Shown in pieces: positions 7,775 to 35,637 of a stretch of 64,000 nt of DNA. The position numbers were made by a program, and so were the translations under genes. The stretch spans positions 3,776,001-3,840,000 of the forward strand of contig JASGHG010000001.1 of NCBI GenBank assembly GCA_047602425.1. Direction: 5' to 3'. Numbering within the stretch: the first letter of the stretch is position 1; every line of letters starts with the position of its first letter. The DNA is from Nibricoccus sp. GTDB lineage: Bacteria; Verrucomicrobiota; Verrucomicrobiia; Opitutales; Opitutaceae. The notes below the pieces were generated by a model. That model did no database searches and had not been told where the DNA came from. It saw only the letters and a program-made list of their open reading frames with translations.

Positions 7775-10276
7775 TTATTTCCAAATCGCGACGAGGTCTT
7801 CGCTGCGGATCCAGCCGGTCTGGCCGTTGGGAAAGCTGAGGTGCGCCCAGGTTTTGCCGATAAAGTTGTTATCGACAACAGCCACGGTGCCGCCGGAGAG
7901 CGGGGTCGTTTTTTGCGAGGTTTCGACCTCCGTAGGGATCGACCGGAGGGTGGTGGTGCGCCAGACGACGACGGCGCGGGCGTCGTTGAGCGGTGAATAC
8001 ACACGCAGGCTGAAGCCAGCGGCACCGCCGAGGAAGCTGGAAAACACGAAGAGCGCGATTGCGGTAATTTTCAGCCAGCGGGCGGACTTGCCGTAGGCGC
8101 GCAACAAGAGCAAGGCAAAGGCGAGGGCGGCCAGGATTGAAGCGAGAATGGCGGCATATTGCCACTGCGTAGGCGAAAGCAGGCCGGCGATTTGATGCGG
8201 TGGATGTGCGGCGGAAAAACCCGAGAAAACCGACGGAGCGAAATTGGCGCGTTCGATGGCGAACGTGAGATTCCACCGGATCGCCGGATCGGTGGGATTT
8301 TGAGCGAAGGCGGCGGCGGCATGTGCGGCTGCTTCCGCCCAGCGATCCTGTTGGGCGATTGCGAGCGAGAGATTGTGATGCGCGGCGGGATTCGCCGGAG
8401 TTTTCACCAGCGCGGCGCGCCAGGATTGTTCGGCTGCAGCAAAATCGCCTTTATCGTATGCCGCTTTGGCATCGGCGGCGTGGAGAGAGGTGCCAGTCAG
8501 GGCGAAGCCGAGCGCGAGAAGGGCGGCGAAGGGAAGGAGATTTTTTAAGCGAAACAGTTGCCAGAAGGAAAAGCCGGGAACGTGGTGCGTCGCCAGGGCT
8601 TCACGCGCGCGGGTGCTCCAGTCCGCCGGGAGGGGAGTGGCATCGCGGTAGAGGGCGCGTTCGGTCTCGGCCCACAACGCTATCCACTTGGCTTCGCTTG
8701 TGGGAAAACTGTGGGCTGCGGGCACCGCGGCGGAGAATTGCCAGAGGAGAGCGATCTCTTTTTGCCAAGTGAGGATGAGTTTGGCGGTTTCTTCTGGGTT
8801 TTGAGAGGAACCCAATGCATCGATTGCGGCGAGCGCTCGCTGGCGGGCTTCGCGGCGTGTGCGCGCGGGATCGGTCACGCGCGCGCGGCGGAAGGCGAGC
8901 CAAAGCCATAAGGCGAGCAGCACGGCGACGGGCGCACAAAGGGCGGCGATGAAACGATTTTGCTCCAGTGGTTCTGCGGCTTCGCCAGCGTCGGGCAAGG
9001 GATCGCGCGGGATGCCCTTGGGCATGGCGGGTGGTTTTGGCTGGCTTTCCGTGGGGGCCGGCGACGCCGGAGTCGCAGCGCTGACGGTCGGCTGGGGAAC
9101 TTCCGCCGCGGGCGCGACGCTGACGGTGGTCGCGGGTGCGGTGACGGTTTGGTATTCGCCTTTTGCAGGATCGAAGTAGGACCAAGTCACAGGGCCGAGC
9201 GTGTAGCTGCCGGGCTTCGTTGGGATAAGAACCACGTCCTCAACCAGTGTGGCCTCGAAAAGGGCGCCTTCCTTGGGCGTGCGTTTGGCCTGCGGTTGCA
9301 CGGCGCGAAAATCTTTCGAAACACTCCGTGCGGGCAAGCCGGGGAAACTGGGCCAGTTGCCAGTGCCGGCGAGCGTGAGCGTCCAAGTGATCGGTTCGCC
9401 CACGCTGGTGGTGGCGGGCACAACGTTGGACTTGAGCGTGAACTGGCCAACGGCGCCATTGAACGAAACCGGTGCATTGGACGGCAACGGACGGACCGTG
9501 ACGACCGGCTTGTTACTGGTGATGGCGAATTGTTCGATATTGGGGCGGTTGAAGAAGCCGAGGCCCGCGGACCCTGTCGTAATATTGACGAGCTGGTTTC
9601 CCTCCGGCAGCGTCAACGGACCCGGTTTACCGATTGAAGCCCGGGTGTTTTGGTAGACGGTGATGAAGGGCTCGCCATTGATCTGGGATTCGCGGGCGGC
9701 GAGCTTGCTCCATTCCTCCGTGACAAGTGCGGATGGCTTCCAGTCGAGCAGGCTGCCGACCAATCCATCGAGGCTGTAGATGTTTCGCTTGCGGACATTG
9801 AGATTGTATTCGATGGGGAAAACCTCGCCGGCCCAGACGGTGGCCGGGATGTTGAAATTGGCGGTGGCGACTGATTCAAGCGAAACGCCACCGGCGGTCG
9901 CGGCACCAACGGAGTAATTTGCAGCGGGCACGTTGATGCGACCCTTGTCGGTATCGACTGAAAACTCCGGAATGACGATGTCGGCGCGTTTGGTGGGGCG
10001 TGCCGCGTAAGTGAGAGACTCGCTGCGGGAGACCGAACCATTGACAATCGATGTCTGGCTGGAATTTCCGGCAAATTGCAGGACGAGGCCATCGACGGAA
10101 GGCAGGGTGGGCTGCCCTTTGGGGGCGCAGCCTTCGAAAATAAGCAGGAGCTGGTTAGCCTGGCCGAAGGCGAGGGTGCCGCTTGACGGTTCCCACCGTC
10201 CGGATTGTGCATGAGCAAGGGTGGCCAGGCTGAAAGTGGCGAGAAGGGCGATGACGATTTTTTGGAGGCGGCGCAT
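7775..10276 (-). CDS. batD: BatD-family protein with C-terminal TPR and SH3-like (BatE-like) region
   Basis: Signal peptide, FNGAVGQFTL, GEPITWTLTLAGTGN, YFDPAKGEY, AYDKGDFAAA/HHNL TPR, NGQTGWI; last gene of the MoxR-vWA operon. Confidence 0.85.
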   Translation of the reverse strand: MRRLQKIVIALLATFSLATLAHAQSGRWEPSSGTLAFGQANQLLLIFEGCAPKGQPTLPSVDGLVLQFAGNSSQTSIVNGSVSRSESLTYAARPTKRADIVIPEFSVDTDKGRINVPAANYSVGAATAGGVSLESVATANFNIPATVWAGEVFPIEYNLNVRKRNIYSLDGLVGSLLDWKPSALVTEEWSKLAARESQINGEPFITVYQNTRASIGKPGPLTLPEGNQLVNITTGSAGLGFFNRPNIEQFAITSNKPVVTVRPLPSNAPVSFNGAVGQFTLKSNVVPATTSVGEPITWTLTLAGTGNWPSFPGLPARSVSKDFRAVQPQAKRTPKEGALFEATLVEDVVLIPTKPGSYTLGPVTWSYFDPAKGEYQTVTAPATTVSVAPAAEVPQPTVSAATPASPAPTESQPKPPAMPKGIPRDPLPDAGEAAEPLEQNRFIAALCAPVAVLLALWLWLAFRRARVTDPARTRREARQRALAAIDALGSSQNPEETAKLILTWQKEIALLWQFSAAVPAAHSFPTSEAKWIALWAETERALYRDATPLPADWSTRAREALATHHVPGFSFWQLFRLKNLLPFAALLALGFALTGTSLHAADAKAAYDKGDFAAAEQSWRAALVKTPANPAAHHNLSLAIAQQDRWAEAAAHAAAAFAQNPTDPAIRWNLTFAIERANFAPSVFSGFSAAHPPHQIAGLLSPTQWQYAAILASILAALAFALLLLRAYGKSARWLKITAIALFVFSSFLGGAAGFSLRVYSPLNDARAVVVWRTTTLRSIPTEVETSQKTTPLSGGTVAVVDNNFIGKTWAHLSFPNGQTGWIRSEDLVAIWK

Positions 10277-20331: not shown

Positions 20332-20448
20332 TAACCACTTATTGTCACTGAAGGTCACTAATGCATGTGCCCTGGACCGAGTTTCCACATGCCTCGCCGC
20401 TGTTTTATTTCCTTTGTATCAGTGTCTATCAGTGAACATCAGTGGTTA
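20332..20448. mobile_element. Gene-less inverted-repeat element with three 10-bp-period CACTRAT-like units per end
   Basis: TAACCACTTATTGTCACTGAAGGTCACTAAT (20332-20362) ... ATCAGTGTCTATCAGTGAACATCAGTGGTTA (20418-20448); same architecture as the GxxExxY termini. Confidence 0.6.
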
Positions 20449-21815: not shown

Positions 21816-21829
21816 GGGCGGAGGGAATG

Positions 21830-21897
21830 GCCACAAAAAGCACAGAAGGCGCAGAAGAGCTTTATTATGTGCATAGGCCGTTTGTGCTTTTTGTGGC
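21830..21897. repeat. Inverted pair of 9-bp-period CACAAAAAG-type units
   Basis: GCCACAAAAAGCACAGAAGGCGCAGAAG ... TTTGTGCTTTTTGTGGC (16/17 inverted match). Confidence 0.7.
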
Positions 21898-22856: not shown

Positions 22857-24140
22857 TCACAGGGCCTTGATTGCGTCGGCGAGGACCTCGCAGGCTTTGG
22901 TGATGGCGGGGCCATCGTGGGCGGTGCTGAGAAAGGCGGCCTCGTAGGCGCTCGGCGCGAGGTAGACGCCTTGGTCGAGGCAGAGGCGGAAAAGGCGGGC
23001 GAAAAGTTTGGCGTCGCCTTTAAGCGCGGTGGCGTAGTCGCGGACCGGCGTATCCGTGAAGAAAATACTGAACATCGAACCGCATTGTGGAACTTGCACA
23101 GGAATCCCCTTGGCCTGCGCGGCGGCCACGACGGTGCCCTTGATCTGCTGGCCAAGAATATCAAGGCGGCCGTAGGGATTTCCCTCGTCGAGCAATTTGA
23201 GTGCGGCGATGCCGGCGGCCATTGCGAGCGGGTTGCCGCTGAGCGTGCCGGCCTGGTAAACGGGTCCGAGCGGTGCGAGGCAGTTCATGATATCGGCGCG
23301 TCCACCAAAGGCGCCAACGGGCAGGCCGCCGCCAATGATTTTTCCTAAACAGGTCAAATCGGGAACGATGCCTTCGCGCTCCTGCACGCCGCCTTTGGCG
23401 ATGCGGAAACCGGTCATGACTTCGTCGAAAATGAGAACCGTCCCGTGCTTGGCGGTGATCTCACGGAGGAACGCGAGGTAACCGGCATCGGGCATGATGA
23501 ACCCGACGTTGCCACAGTAGGGCTCGATGATTACGCCGGCGATTTGGCCGGGATTCGCAGCGAAGGCGGCCTCGAGTGCGGCGCGATCGTTGTAGGGGAG
23601 GACAACGGTTTCCTGGGCGAACGAGGCGGGCACACCGGCGCTGTCCGGACTACCATGGGTGAGCGCTCCCGAACCAGCTTTGATCAGCAATGAATCCGAG
23701 TGGCCATGGTAGCAGCCGGCGAATTTCACGATTTTGTCGCGCTTGGTGAAGCCACGGGCGAGGCGGATAGCCGACATCGTGGCTTCGGTACCGCTGTTGC
23801 ACATGCGGACCTTTTGGATTGATGGAAAAAACTTTATGATGAGCTCGGCCATCTCGACTTCGTAGGGATTGGGCGTGCCGAAGCTCGTGCCGTTTTCGAG
23901 CGCGGTGGCGATGGCCTTTTTGATCGCGGGGTGGTTGTGGCCGTGAATGGCGGGGCCCCAGGTGCAGACGAAGTCGACGAGGACTTGGTTGTCGCTCGTA
24001 ATGAGTGTGGCGCCGCGTGCGGCCTTGACGAAAAACGGTGCGCCACCGACGGAGCGGAAAGCGCGGACGGGCGAATTCACGCCGCCAGGAATAAGCTGCT
24101 GGGCGCGGGCAAAAAGTTGTTCGGAGGTTGAGGAAGACAT
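22857..24140 (-). CDS. hemL: Glutamate-1-semialdehyde 2,1-aminomutase
   Basis: [61 protein letters not shown]. Confidence 0.97.
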
Positions 24141-24150
24141 GACGGATATT

Positions 24151-24610
24151 TTTTTAACCGCTAATTTTCGCTAATGGGCGCTAATTCAGACAGGAGAGCG
24201 AGTGTTGACGAAACGTTTCCATTGGAGCGAAGGAAACGCGGCAAAGTTGATGAGGTAACCGACGGACTTGCGGGTGACTCGGAGGTAATTGAGGAGTTGT
24301 GCCTCGTGTTCTTCGGCGAGTGTTTTGACGGCTTTGAATTCAACGACGACTTCATCAGCAATGAACAGGTCGGGACGCAAACGCTTTGTGAGAGGTTGGC
24401 CCTTGTAGAAAACAACAAGTTCGGATTGGGCAGCGAACGGAATGTTTCTCGCATTTAATGCGCGCTCCATGCTCTCCTGATAAATTTCCTCGGATAGACC
24501 GCCGCCCAGATCATTGTACACATCGAAAGCAGCGGCCATAATGTCATACCCGAGCTGTGCGAGTGGCTTGTCTGAATTAGCGTTCATTAGCGAAAATTAG
24601 CGGTTAAAAA
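24151..24610. mobile_element. Putative 460-bp element: GxxExxY nuclease gene bounded by 42-bp terminal inverted repeats
   Basis: Left 24151-24192 TTTTTAACCGCTAATTTTCGCTAATGGGCGCTAATTCAGACA; right 24569-24610 TGTCTGAATTAGCGTTCATTAGCGAAAATTAGCGGTTAAAAA; 40/42 complementary. Confidence 0.7.
24186..24587 (-). CDS. GxxExxY protein (PD-(D/E)XK nuclease superfamily)
   Basis: GLSEEIY (GxxExxY), RPDL, VEFKAV (ExK), AQLLNYL, GYLINF. Confidence 0.92.
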   Translation of the reverse strand: MNANSDKPLAQLGYDIMAAAFDVYNDLGGGLSEEIYQESMERALNARNIPFAAQSELVVFYKGQPLTKRLRPDLFIADEVVVEFKAVKTLAEEHEAQLLNYLRVTRKSVGYLINFAAFPSLQWKRFVNTRSPV

Positions 24611-24629
24611 CGGTTTATTTTCCGTTAAC

Positions 24630-26336
24630 TTAGCTCACGTATTTTTGGACGATGGGGATGCGGCGGCCGACGCCGAAGGCGAGGGGGGTGGTTTTCAGGC
24701 CGGGGGCCATTTGCTTGCGCTTGTATTCATTGAGGTCGACCTTGCGAATGATGTCGCTGACGACTGGTTCGGCGAAACCTTGCGCGATCAAGTCACGGCG
24801 GGAGAGGCCTTCTTCGACGTAGCCTTTGAGGATTGCGTCGAGCACGTCGTAGGGCGGCAGGCTGTCCTGGTCGACCTGGCCGGGGCGGAGTTCGGCGGAC
24901 GGCGGTTTTTCGATCGTGTTGAGCGGTATGATTTCGCGGTTGCGATTGATCCAGCGCGAGAGGGCGTAGATCTGCGTTTTGAAAACGTCGGAAATGACGG
25001 CGAGGCCGCCGCACATGTCGCCGTAAAGCGTGCAATAGCCGACTGCGACTTCACTCTTGTTGCCGGTGGTGAGGAGAAGCGAGCCGAACTTGTTGGACAG
25101 AGCCATCATGATGACGCCGCGCACGCGGGCCTGGATGTTTTCCTCGGTGACGTCGGGTTTGCGACCGGCAAAGATCGGACCGAGCGCGGTCTCGGCAGCG
25201 GCTACGACATCGGCGATGGCGATGGTTTCGAAACGAATGCCGAGGGTTTTCGCGAGAACGCGGGCGTCGTCTTTCGAGTGTTGCGACGAGATCGCGGAGG
25301 GCAGGGAAACGCCGATGACATTTTCCGGGCCGAAGGCTTCGGCGGCGAGCACAGCAACGACCGCAGAGTCGATGCCGCCGGAAAGCGCGATGAGCGCGCG
25401 CTTAAAACCGGATTTGAACGCGTAGTCGCGCAAGCCGAGCACGAGGGCGGCGTACACATCGGCGGAGGGATCGGAGGGTGGTAGGGACGACCCGCCGGGT
25501 CGTCCGTCAACGTCATCTGCGGGTAAGTTACGCGCGACCGGACGGCCCGGCGGTTCGTCCCTACCTTCGGAAAAACTCACATCGACGATGCGCAACTCTT
25601 CGGCAAACGCGGCGAGGCGGGCAATGACGTTGCCCGACGCATCGGCAACGAGTGAGCGGCCGTCGAAGATCAACTCGTCGTTACCGCCAATCGCATTGCA
25701 ATATACAAGTGGACAGCCGAGGGTGCGGACGCTGTCGATAACGAGTTGTTCGCGTATGTCGCTTTTGCTGTAATGCCAAGGGCTGGCGGAGAGATTGATG
25801 ACGAGATCGACGCTTTTGGCGGCGAGGCTGGCAACGGGATTGGCGCGGTAAAGGCGTCCGGTGTCGATTGCGGGGTTTTTCCAAATATCCTCGCAAATGG
25901 TGAGCCCGATTTTTTTACCGCCGAAATTGACGATGGCGGGCTCGCGGGCGGCTTCGAAATACCGATCTTCGTCGAACACGTCATAGGTCGGCAGCAGGCA
26001 TTTGCGGCCGATCACGGCGATCTCGCCGCGTTGGCAGAAGGCGGCGGCATTGAACCAGCGGCGGCCTTCGGCGGAGGGGTTCGTTTCGACGAAGCCGATC
26101 ACGGCGGGCACTTCGCCGATTTCGACGGCGATTTCGGTGAGCGATTCCTCGTTGTCGGAGACGAAGCGTTTTTTGAACAACAGATCGCGGGGCGGATAGC
26201 CGCAGACAATCAGCTCGGGAAACACGACGAGTTCAGCGCCTTGAGCGACGAGCGTGCGGTAGGCGTCGAGGATTTTGCGGCGATTGCCGGCGAGGTCACC
26301 GACGGTCGAGTTGAGCTGGGCGAGTCCGATGCGCAT
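24630..26336 (-). CDS. nadE: Glutamine-dependent NAD+ synthetase
   Basis: Nitrilase domain ([21 protein letters not shown]) plus synthetase domain ([35 protein letters not shown]); start at ATG 26336. Confidence 0.96.
25480..25565. repeat. GTAG-type REP doublet located in-frame within nadE
   Basis: GGTAGGGACGACCCGCCGGGTCGTCCG (25480-25506) and CGGACGGCCCGGCGGTTCGTCCCTACC (25539-25565); 25/27 inverted match. Confidence 0.85.
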
Positions 26337-27281: not shown

Positions 27282-27451
27282 TTGAACAGAGATAGGTTTC
27301 TATCTCCATCCGTGTTTCAGAGGCGGTAAGTGGTTCAATGGGTCTTTTTTTTGACCACTTATGAACACTGATGGGCGCTGATAACAAACCAGGCACAACA
27401 GAATTGCACCCTACGGTCGGAAGCTCCGTTCCCTCAGTTTCCTCCTGTAAA
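27282..27451. repeat. Cluster of degenerate periodic terminal-repeat ends
   Basis: ATCCGTG...TAAGTGGTTCAA (27308-27338), TTGACCACTTATGAACACTGATGGGCGCTGAT (27351-27382) and CTCCGTTCCCTCAGTTTCCTCCTGTAAAA (27424-27452). Confidence 0.55.
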
Positions 27452-27971: not shown

Positions 27972-28035
27972 AGGTGCGCGCTAGAGGTTGGCCGTGGCAA
28001 GCGGTATAGGTTTCATCCTGAATTCCGCAGAAGGA

Positions 28036-28177
28036 TTAACCACTTATAATCACTTATTGGCACGATGCCTGAGTTGTAGCGAATAGAAAACCAAGACTCG
28101 GTTCATCGGTGAGGTGAATGATTTTGGTCAGCTAAATTCTGACCATCAGTGTTTCTCAGTGAAAATAAGTGGTTCAA
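28036..28177. mobile_element. Gene-less inverted-repeat element with 10-bp-period CACTTAT/CACTGAT ends
   Basis: TTAACCACTTATAATCACTTATTGGCACGAT (28036-28066) ... ATCAGTGTTTCTCAGTGAAAATAAGTGGTTCAA (28145-28177). Confidence 0.6.
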
Positions 28178-28318
28178 CTGCGGTTAAGGTTCATCGCATC
28201 CGATGGGTAGACGGGACCTATCTCTTCGGTCTGTACACGCTGAACCCGCCGCGTTGGTTGCGGCGTGTCCAGCGGTTATGCGCGGTCTTAAACGGCTATG
28301 GCGTTGTTTTTCCGTTTC

Positions 28319-35351: not shown

Positions 35352-35374
35352 GTTAACGCGGAGTTTTTAGAAGG

Positions 35375-35602
35375 GCCACAGAGGGCACGGAGCGATGACA
35401 CAGAGTTCACGGAGGAAATGCCATGGAAAATTTTAGGTGGAAGGTGGCAGTTTTTAACCACGGCGGCGCAGGAGTTCAGAGTGTGGATTTTTTTCAGGAG
35501 AAAACGGAGAGAACAGAGATGGAGACGGTGAACCAAGCACGCATGGTCTTTCCATCACTACAACTCTGTGCCTCTGTGTCTTCGCTCTGTGTTCTCTGCG
35601 AC
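35375..35602. mobile_element. Gene-less inverted-repeat element with CACAGAG/CACGGAG periodic ends
   Basis: GCCACAGAGGGCACGGAGCGATGACACAGAGTTCACGGAG (35375-35414) ... CTCTGTGCCTCTGTGTCTTCGCTCTGTGTTCTCTGCGAC (35564-35602); extra orphan ends are nested inside. Confidence 0.6.
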
Positions 35603-35637
35603 CCAACTGCCTATTTTAAACCTACCTTGGTTCCTAT

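Follow-up and report, generated by a model that had tools for sequence, protein, structure and literature searches.

A 460-bp unit at 24151-24610 fills the gap between nadE and hemL in the 64,000-nucleotide stretch of DNA analysed here (the window), and it consists of a GxxExxY gene held between two inverted arms (Table 1). The question raised by this locus is whether such a package is a self-contained selfish unit, as the original prediction proposed, or an accessory gene that happens to lie within a palindrome. The two arms measure 42 nt each, are complementary at 40 of 42 positions (95%) and are separated by 376 nt, leaving 10 bp outside the arms on the hemL side and 19 bp on the nadE side. 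All three genes are co-oriented on the minus strand. Direct reading places the ATG inside the nadE-side arm and the TGA inside the hemL-side arm, and the two arm mismatches are bases 1 and 2 of codon 2; these placements had been predicted, as had a 133-aa GxxExxY gene as the sole content of the gap between arms matching at 40/42, with which the TIGR04256/PF13366 scores and the arm alignment agree. A promoter scan found no promoter of the gene's own, and its one weak antisense site is matched in shuffled sequence. When all 839 genes of 300-600 bp in this genome are scored for flanking inverted repeats, the gene at 24186-24587 ranks first; a score of at least 30 is reached by just three of them, and all three are GxxExxY genes.

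Table 1. Unit in the nadE-hemL gap and gene-less arm pairs in the window (window coordinates).
Feature	Position	Strand	Remarks
hemL, downstream host gene	22857..24140	-	
hemL-side arm	24151..24192	+	T-run + AAC + three CGCTAAT at a 10-bp period; overlaps last codons and TGA
GxxExxY / PDDEXK_3 gene, 133 aa	24186..24587	-	same strand as operon
nadE-side arm, inverted partner (40/42)	24569..24610	-	holds ATG and first codons
nadE, upstream host gene	24630..26336	-	
Gene-less CACTRAT arm pair, proS-clpS gap	20332..20448		
CACTRAT-type arm pair (28037-28175) inside IS-like ends CCT...AGG	28017..28189		5-bp direct repeat on both sides; MITE with arm pair
Gene-less CACRGAG arm pair	35373..35604		type also found around this genome's GxxExxY gene between gatA and gatB

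The 133-aa protein scores 128.8 bits against TIGR04256 (GxxExxY; cut-off 35) and 130.4 bits against PF13366 (cut-off 22). It carries G30xxE33xxY36 together with P72D73, E83xK85 and Q97xxxY101, so that the PD, ExK and QxxxY motifs are intact, as had been stated. In a 107-row alignment, K85 and N114 are invariant, and G30, E33, Y36, D73, Q97 and Y101 are kept in at least 90% of the rows. A model predicted from this alignment reached a pLDDT of 90.6 (a single-sequence model, at pLDDT 38, was discarded), and its best Foldseek match was Cas4 SSO0001 (E 8.7e-5), with further matches to lambda exonuclease, RecE and AddAB; the VIA Z scores of BpuSI (8.0) and Cas4 (7.9) were tied. On this model, the GxxExxY protein is a predicted PD-(D/E)XK nuclease with a RecB/Cas4-type fold. 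Solved structures searched by sequence gave nothing better than E 0.1, and a profile search of the protein returned matches only to GxxExxY/PDDEXK_3, plus Cas4 at E 0.2, and no transposase domain. No HUH (Y1), DDE or recombinase domain was detected in the protein, whose fold matches are PD-(D/E)XK.

The closest named homologues belong to the Verrucomicrobiota, and PF13366 is present in 76 of 151 sampled genomes of the phylum, as well as in further phyla. The gene is found on 8 of 72,556 plasmid records and in 2 of 50,697 phage records, both from one haloarchaeal virus. Paralogues within a genome are at most 82% identical (170 pairs, 24 genomes). GxxExxY genes retain 74-83% amino-acid identity at saturated four-fold sites, which indicates purifying selection. 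A table row in PMC3424549 gives the function of the PF13366 family as unknown, and a passage in 10.1101/2021.01.26.428298 mentions a GxxExxY protein as the incidental neighbour of an RT. Our literature search, which covered main texts with few subscription papers among them, found no description of GxxExxY-linked repeats.

If the arms at nadE-hemL belong with the gene, homologues elsewhere should carry arms as well. We collected 134 distinct gene matches from 30 relatives, 39 genome-contig loci and the genome itself, of which 127 had enough flanking sequence. An inverted-repeat score of at least 12 was reached at 91 of the 127 loci, compared with 11 of 300 cross-paired flanks and none of 127 shuffles; the remaining 36 have no clear inverted repeat. 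Among metagenome loci, 46 of the 70 that were usable (of 77) have an inverted repeat, versus 3 after shuffling. The gene occupies either the loop of a single arm pair or the space between arrays of whole hairpins (L128, L076, L121, L135), and numerous arms are single or face outward from it. Gene direction follows the operon, at 72 versus 7 loci with respect to the downstream neighbour and 66 versus 4 with respect to the upstream one.

The arm motif also follows the protein. On a quick tree of 116 rows, 78 of them labelled, the arm motif changes 32 times, versus 57.5 times (minimum 50) for shuffled labels. Since kin share labels, the crossing of sites and clades is a stronger point than the tree: the clade of the window's gene retains CGCTAAT/CACTRAT arms at hemL and at unrelated sites (an ABC permease pair, gmk-coaBC and others), and in one and the same gap (pheS-pheT, before alaS, after resB) different clades are found, and the motif differs with the clade. 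Every GxxExxY lineage comes with heptamer-array arms peculiar to it. Both the flanking repeats of homologues and their co-variation with the protein had been put forward as checks on the original prediction, and the results of both support it. The seventh motif base co-varies with residues 25 and 100, which are candidate specificity residues; this suggestive covariation is confounded with clade. At several loci (L191, at G003:C19:250-720 and 8900-9650; L128, L076, L083 and L121), arms are amplified as tandem units, with a REP-like palindrome in L191 and L083 and, in some, on both sides of the GxxExxY gene. Nests of several unrelated hairpin pairs share one gap at L316, L317 and L318 (G171, where PF13366 was not found, and G150).

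Five PF13366 genes are present in this genome, all between neighbouring genes of housekeeping operons (gatA-gatB, nadE-hemL, pheS-pheT, argF-argG and a peptide ABC ATPase pair), and all five have a periodic arm motif of their own (CACRGAG, CGCTAAT, ACGAAG, CGCGAAT and CACGGAT). An arm consists of a heptamer repeated in direct orientation, is not palindromic and has a T-run on its outer edge. A 10-bp phasing that sets the sites on one face of the DNA had been proposed; it holds for the CGCTAAT type but not as a general rule, as arms elsewhere in this genome are of 9-bp or 9/13-bp types. Weight matrices, of which CACTRAT is the loosest, identified 272 arms in 151 clusters, mostly without a gene and dispersed over intergenic gaps, which supplies the genome-wide tally of gene-less pairs that had been called for. 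Head-to-head pairs number 60, versus 1 that is tail-to-tail; 62 arms stand alone, and others form nested mixtures. For the CGCTAAT type, there are 38 strong arms in the genome, 22 of them with a facing partner. Gene-less copies of the same end architecture had been claimed for the window, and the architecture does recur at three sites there (Table 1), but with different motifs; the other CGCTAAT arms lie elsewhere in the genome. Also in the window are a degenerate CACAAAA-type pair before a DTW-like gene (~21829-21897) and a CACTRAT arm opposite an arm of another type (~27352-27450).

By gap, 104 of the 151 clusters are co-directional, 21 convergent and 16 divergent, with 10 inside called genes, approximately the proportions of all gaps in the genome. 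The median distance from the upstream stop codon to the start of the arm is 15 bp in 47 co-directional pairs. A T-run and TCGGA-rich DNA are seen in the flanks. The interiors of the gene-less pairs are unique, and tblastn found no GxxExxY remnant in them, so that copying of whole units is not seen in this genome. Flanking direct repeats around 58 same-type pairs are no longer than in shuffled sequence; a short target duplication could have decayed, because the copies are old. Local clustering of arm types within 20 kb was not significant (p 0.07-1.0). Arm pairs at G000:C1 3983882-3984102 and 4765809-4765918 have received insertions from two further families of dispersed repeats, namely an element of 155-170 bp in ~30 copies and a REP-like palindrome. 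Elsewhere (G000:C1 1761266-1763358 and 848712-849101) are transposase-like genes that resemble RAYTs, named from the look of the translation, with 27-bp inverted repeats of their own.

We searched the 151 genomes drawn from the phylum with a general arm pattern. At least 7 matches occur in 46 of the 76 genomes with PF13366 and in none of the 75 without it; at least 4 occur in 56 of 76 versus 2 of 75, and the totals are 1442 and 45 matches, although p-values for this co-occurrence overstate it because the sampled genomes are related. The counts far exceed the genes' own arms (G151 has 1 gene and 65 matches), and in family f23 the sole carrier among 24 genomes has 25 arm matches. Eleven carriers have zero matches to the general pattern; in five of seven zero or near-zero carriers that were inspected, the gene has an arm type outside the pattern. 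Only carriers of the gene family have gene-less arm pairs in abundance. At the level of single motifs, CGCTAAT arrays have 39-88 matches in three congeners with this clade and 5 in a complete congener without it. The cognate dependence is loose, because CGCGAAT arrays are common in G008, G005 and G007 (39, 13 and 12 matches), where no gene of that clade was found.

The reading we favour, at a probability of roughly 0.5, is by analogy a partnership of the RAYT/REPIN kind, built on a predicted nuclease of Cas4/RecB fold, with the nadE-hemL unit as its gene-bearing form. That the protein moves the arms we infer. The behaviour of the locus in relatives, the turnover of the gene-less pairs and the ends of some of them bear on this reading and on its competitors.

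Of the 17 family genomes that could be evaluated before hemL, 7 have the gene with arms, 2 have arms without the gene and 8 have neither. Across the order, seven genomes have a bare, arm-free nadE-hemL gap of -2 to 56 bp, the empty site looked for in relatives. The unit adjoins the 5' end of hemL even where the upstream gene is not nadE (L008, L032, L242). It is common to three of the four evaluable genomes of the genus, and the GxxExxY genes of G000, G002 and G003 group with L036 and L037 (93/97); it is an old resident before hemL in the genus, yet not a purely vertical one. At L010 and L036, the hemL genes are sisters (94% identical, 100/99), and their GxxExxY genes are 58% identical with different arms; sisterhood of these two is excluded at an AU p of 1.2e-10 for a pair that was named after distances were seen. 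The filled hemL alleles do not form one clade (p 9e-13), and the single-clade test of the hemL-site genes gave p 0.03. Different GxxExxY lineages have replaced one another at hemL. The claim of a discrete unit made of gene and repeats fits a package that relatives have, lack or have exchanged for another at this site.

The shared position in the genus and the grouping of its genes there could be accounted for by a plain accessory gene of vertical descent whose palindrome is fortuitous or purely local. We regard this explanation as refuted by the top score among 839 genes, the family-wide arms and the empty and replaced alleles, and we give it hardly any weight.

Further observations concern DNA around the hemL site. 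In L015 (G015:C34), the DNA separating nadE from the unit contains a diverged duplicate, 61 bp long, of the hemL 5' end as well as an ORF for a small membrane protein, an arrangement that looks like a recombination scar. In L024 (G019:C35), a CGCAGAT arm pair upstream of hemL encloses an 85-aa membrane-protein ORF, with further arms and no GxxExxY gene, and arms may thus carry other cargo. In the window, the last 16 nadE codons (24630-24680) have the same DNA sequence in six relatives irrespective of the unit, and the codons upstream differ.

A nuclease gene that is exchanged at one site invites comparison with intronless homing, in which the enzyme would cut the empty allele near the junction and the unit would be copied by recombination through the flanking genes, as a driven minimal mobile element; the arms would protect the filled allele, and gene-less pairs would be decayed units. 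The reuse of the same conserved gaps, the allele replacement at hemL, the hemL duplicate of L015 and a fold shared with recombination-promoting exonucleases are in keeping with it, as is the four-fold identity among filled alleles, which is 0.86 over the last 30 codons of nadE versus 0.56-0.66 upstream. We rejected a co-conversion tract as the source of this rise, however, since it is confined to the nadE 3' end, occurs also in nadE genes without a unit and does not recur generally at 10 other sites. Members of one protein clade sit at unrelated sites, and dozens of gene-less pairs without a gene remnant would be left unexplained. Homing is accordingly an unlikely account of the system.

Gene-less pairs come and go between relatives. 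We followed 12 pair-holding gaps, taken from three syntenic regions chosen for holding several pairs and from proS-clpS, and classed the alleles by eye. Among 51 orthologous alleles, 35 have no arms, 5 another arm type, 8 arrays of 7-bp period, 1 the same pair and 2 a related or single arm; the proS-clpS gap is empty (1-7 bp) in all four congeners. The one pair shared with G003 has conserved arms and interiors that cannot be aligned. Gene-less inserts extend ~10-25 bp past each arm, with relatives too distant to fix the exact junctions; in two gaps, the empty allele is a stop/start overlap that reappears on both sides of the insert. In the gatA-gatB gap, L345, L346, L347 and L349 have a gene-less CAGGAA-type pair, and this genome and G003 have a CACRGAG gene unit.

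Some arms have spread by another route. G002 contains a young family of ~176 bp with CGCTAAT arms, present in 16 near-identical copies, 11 of which have a perfect 5-bp duplication, and the outer ends begin with CCT. A 1570-bp element with the same ends, in at least four copies at 95-98% identity, encodes a DDE_Tnp_1_4 transposase; we take this element to be of the IS1380 family. We had considered the burst in G002 as proof of GxxExxY-driven transposition and rejected it in view of the IS-type ends, the 5-bp duplication and the matching transposase element: this burst of arms is hitchhiking on a MITE, and it inflates the arm count of G002. In the five genomes in which the spread of IS-type ends was assessed, they enclose at least four GxxExxY arm types; in this genome they occur at only a handful of the 272 arms, and most gene-less pairs are without them. 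MITEs of ~175 bp with CCT...AGG ends and 5-bp WTNAW duplications were recorded in G002 at L161-L176 and L187-L190. Further MITEs of this size with arms lie at L201, L203, L205 and L206, at 28017-28189 of the window and at G000:C1 3851600, 4368520 and 4820000. The outer T-run of the arm fits the target consensus of these MITEs.

A second packaging system was encountered in the same kind of gap. Genes of PF05635, which encode a four-helix bundle and no nuclease, are boxed by inverted arrays of 7-bp period in four of five cases, with one motif per gene, and gene-less 7-bp hairpins occupy the same operon gaps as the PF05635 units. Such genes and arrays were recorded at L382, L383, L384 and L386, in the gyrB-gyrA gap (G000:C1 1652428) and at L363, L365, L368 and L369. 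In the literature searched, no description of this packaging of PF05635 was found. The packaging architecture does not depend on a nuclease, because PF05635 genes are packaged alike, and this is the main caution for our reading.

These results bear most directly on the explanation that competes best with ours, a binding-site system without mobility of its own. Here the protein would bind the arrays for the host or for itself (autoregulation, chromosome marking, or an addiction or defence function with a toxic nuclease held in check by the arms), and the arms would be kept by selection and spread by IS-derived MITEs, REP-like tandem units and recombination. Conserved arms around unalignable interiors, even in the pair shared with G003, are in keeping with it; a single-copy gene that is under purifying selection and nearly absent from plasmids and phages fits as well, as do the IS-type ends around several arm types, the tandem amplification of arms in G003 and the packaging of the four-helix-bundle genes. 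Yet most gene-less pairs in this genome lack IS ends and are nevertheless missing from the orthologous gaps of congeners, nested pairs of different types look like repeated insertion, and the clusters have no preference for regulatory gaps, being co-directional as gaps are in general. On balance, we consider this explanation doubtful, though clearly ahead of homing.

The arms could also act at the RNA level, as a long stem in the operon mRNA (removed by RNase III in the manner of an intervening sequence, or serving as a stabiliser) that loops out the insert and keeps the host genes coupled. The predicted transcript does fold into an arm-to-arm stem that buries the ATG (z -6.2), the start and stop codons hug the arms, and the two arms of gene-bearing units agree at 76 of 132 spacer positions, versus 52 when shuffled within clades (p <1/3000). 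A first figure of 73/102 was set aside, as it mixed families and included four near-identical copies. Against an RNA function, sense-strand mismatches of the G-U type are not enriched (85 versus 114 in the pairs of this genome, and 40 versus 60 in 59 gene-bearing units), the match between gene-less arms is no closer than for arms drawn at random from the family, many arms stand alone or point outward, and Rfam gave no match to E 1 in 23900-24900. A spacer match without G-U bias would fit a stem formed by the DNA itself, or conversion of one arm by the other; damping of translation would be a side benefit. We judge an RNA-level element improbable, even more so than homing.

In the RAYT/REPIN-like partnership that we favour, the GxxExxY gene would be expressed by read-through from the operon, and its translation would be limited by the 42-bp stem in which the ATG is buried. 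The protein would bind the heptamer arrays, several copies per arm, and nick or cut the DNA immediately beyond each arm's outer T-run. Host repair would then join the released pair, together with ~10-25 bp of flanking DNA, into another intergenic gap, and for this reason no fixed target duplication would be expected. To our knowledge, no PD-(D/E)XK enzyme joins DNA unaided. Gene-less pairs would move often and gene-bearing units rarely; the latter could also pass between lineages through homologous recombination in the conserved flanking genes, and IS-derived MITEs and REP-like tandem units would carry some arms further afield. More tentatively, and with the odds somewhat against it, GxxExxY proteins may constitute a new class of transposase or mobilising enzyme of 130 aa, which would read a heptamer code in phased arrays, excise pairs and seed operon gaps. 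That would make a convergent RAYT/REPIN-like world in about half of the phylum's genomes, with the four-helix-bundle genes and 7-bp arrays as a sister design.

Among known systems, the RAYT-REP/REPIN pairs and the REPtrons and TIRtrons come closest. The portions of PMC3116915, PMC5581495 and PMC3733652 that treat them describe a single-copy, mostly chromosomal gene beside its own repeat class, and propose read-through expression damped by a hairpin. The GxxExxY system likewise comprises several distinct pairs of gene and repeat in a genome, together with scattered inverted doublets whose arms are conserved, and is rare on plasmids; its gene lies inside long inverted repeats, as in TIRtrons, or is flanked by hairpin arrays. 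The analogy to RAYT/REPIN in the original prediction fits, with a single-copy gene, a cognate repeat and dispersed inverted doublets. The enzymes differ, an HUH tyrosine transposase there and a predicted PD-(D/E)XK nuclease of Cas4/RecB fold here, and so do the repeats, which are GTAG/CGTC-tagged stem-loops in REPs and non-palindromic heptamer arrays at 9-13 bp in our system.

The parallel analogy to IS/MITE pairs holds less well. One gene between terminal inverted repeats and short gene-less pairs with the same ends are shared with IS and MITEs, but here there is no transposase domain, there are no near-identical copies and no constant target duplication, and the interiors are not deletion derivatives. 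The divergent paralogues, the lack of target duplication beyond chance and the long residence before hemL all speak against that analogy. Of the proposed selfish unit, the discrete package, the cognate arms and the gene-less pairs that track the gene have stood; the IS-like behaviour has not, and some of the arms were spread by an unrelated MITE.

Homing enzymes of the PD-(D/E)XK superfamily exist (I-Ssp6803I is an example), and free-standing homing endonucleases are known. With these the unit shares a small nuclease gene wedged between conserved genes and empty alleles in relatives; it differs in that GxxExxY units occupy several sites, are bounded by repeats and have no general co-conversion signal. 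Similarity to minimal mobile elements is found in the different whole-gene cassettes between the same conserved genes (hemL, pheS-pheT, alaS, resB, gatA-gatB) and in a plausible exchange by homologous recombination, to which the nadE 3' signal and the L015 duplicate point, without being general elsewhere. The minimal mobile elements of Neisseria are defined, in the part of PMC3082526 that introduces them, without dedicated ends or a dedicated enzyme, whereas the cassette here has cognate arms and a genome-wide repeat population. Finally, PF05635 genes, including those of 23S rRNA intervening sequences, resemble our system as small operon-gap genes boxed by inverted periodic arrays with gene-less versions, and differ in the 7-bp period and the non-nuclease protein. 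The GxxExxY genes and their arms thus belong to none of the families tested and apparently represent an undescribed family of selfish DNA.

Overall, the link between protein lineage and repeat gives the PF13366 family a concrete candidate substrate, and the arms make up a major unannotated share of the intergenic DNA of this genome, at ~270 in one genome. A nuclease of 130 aa with many natural specificities would be of practical interest. If the protein mobilises the arms, it would represent transposition chemistry without a recognised transposase, and the system would offer, in parallel to RAYT/REPIN, a natural test of why repeat populations are maintained in genomes.
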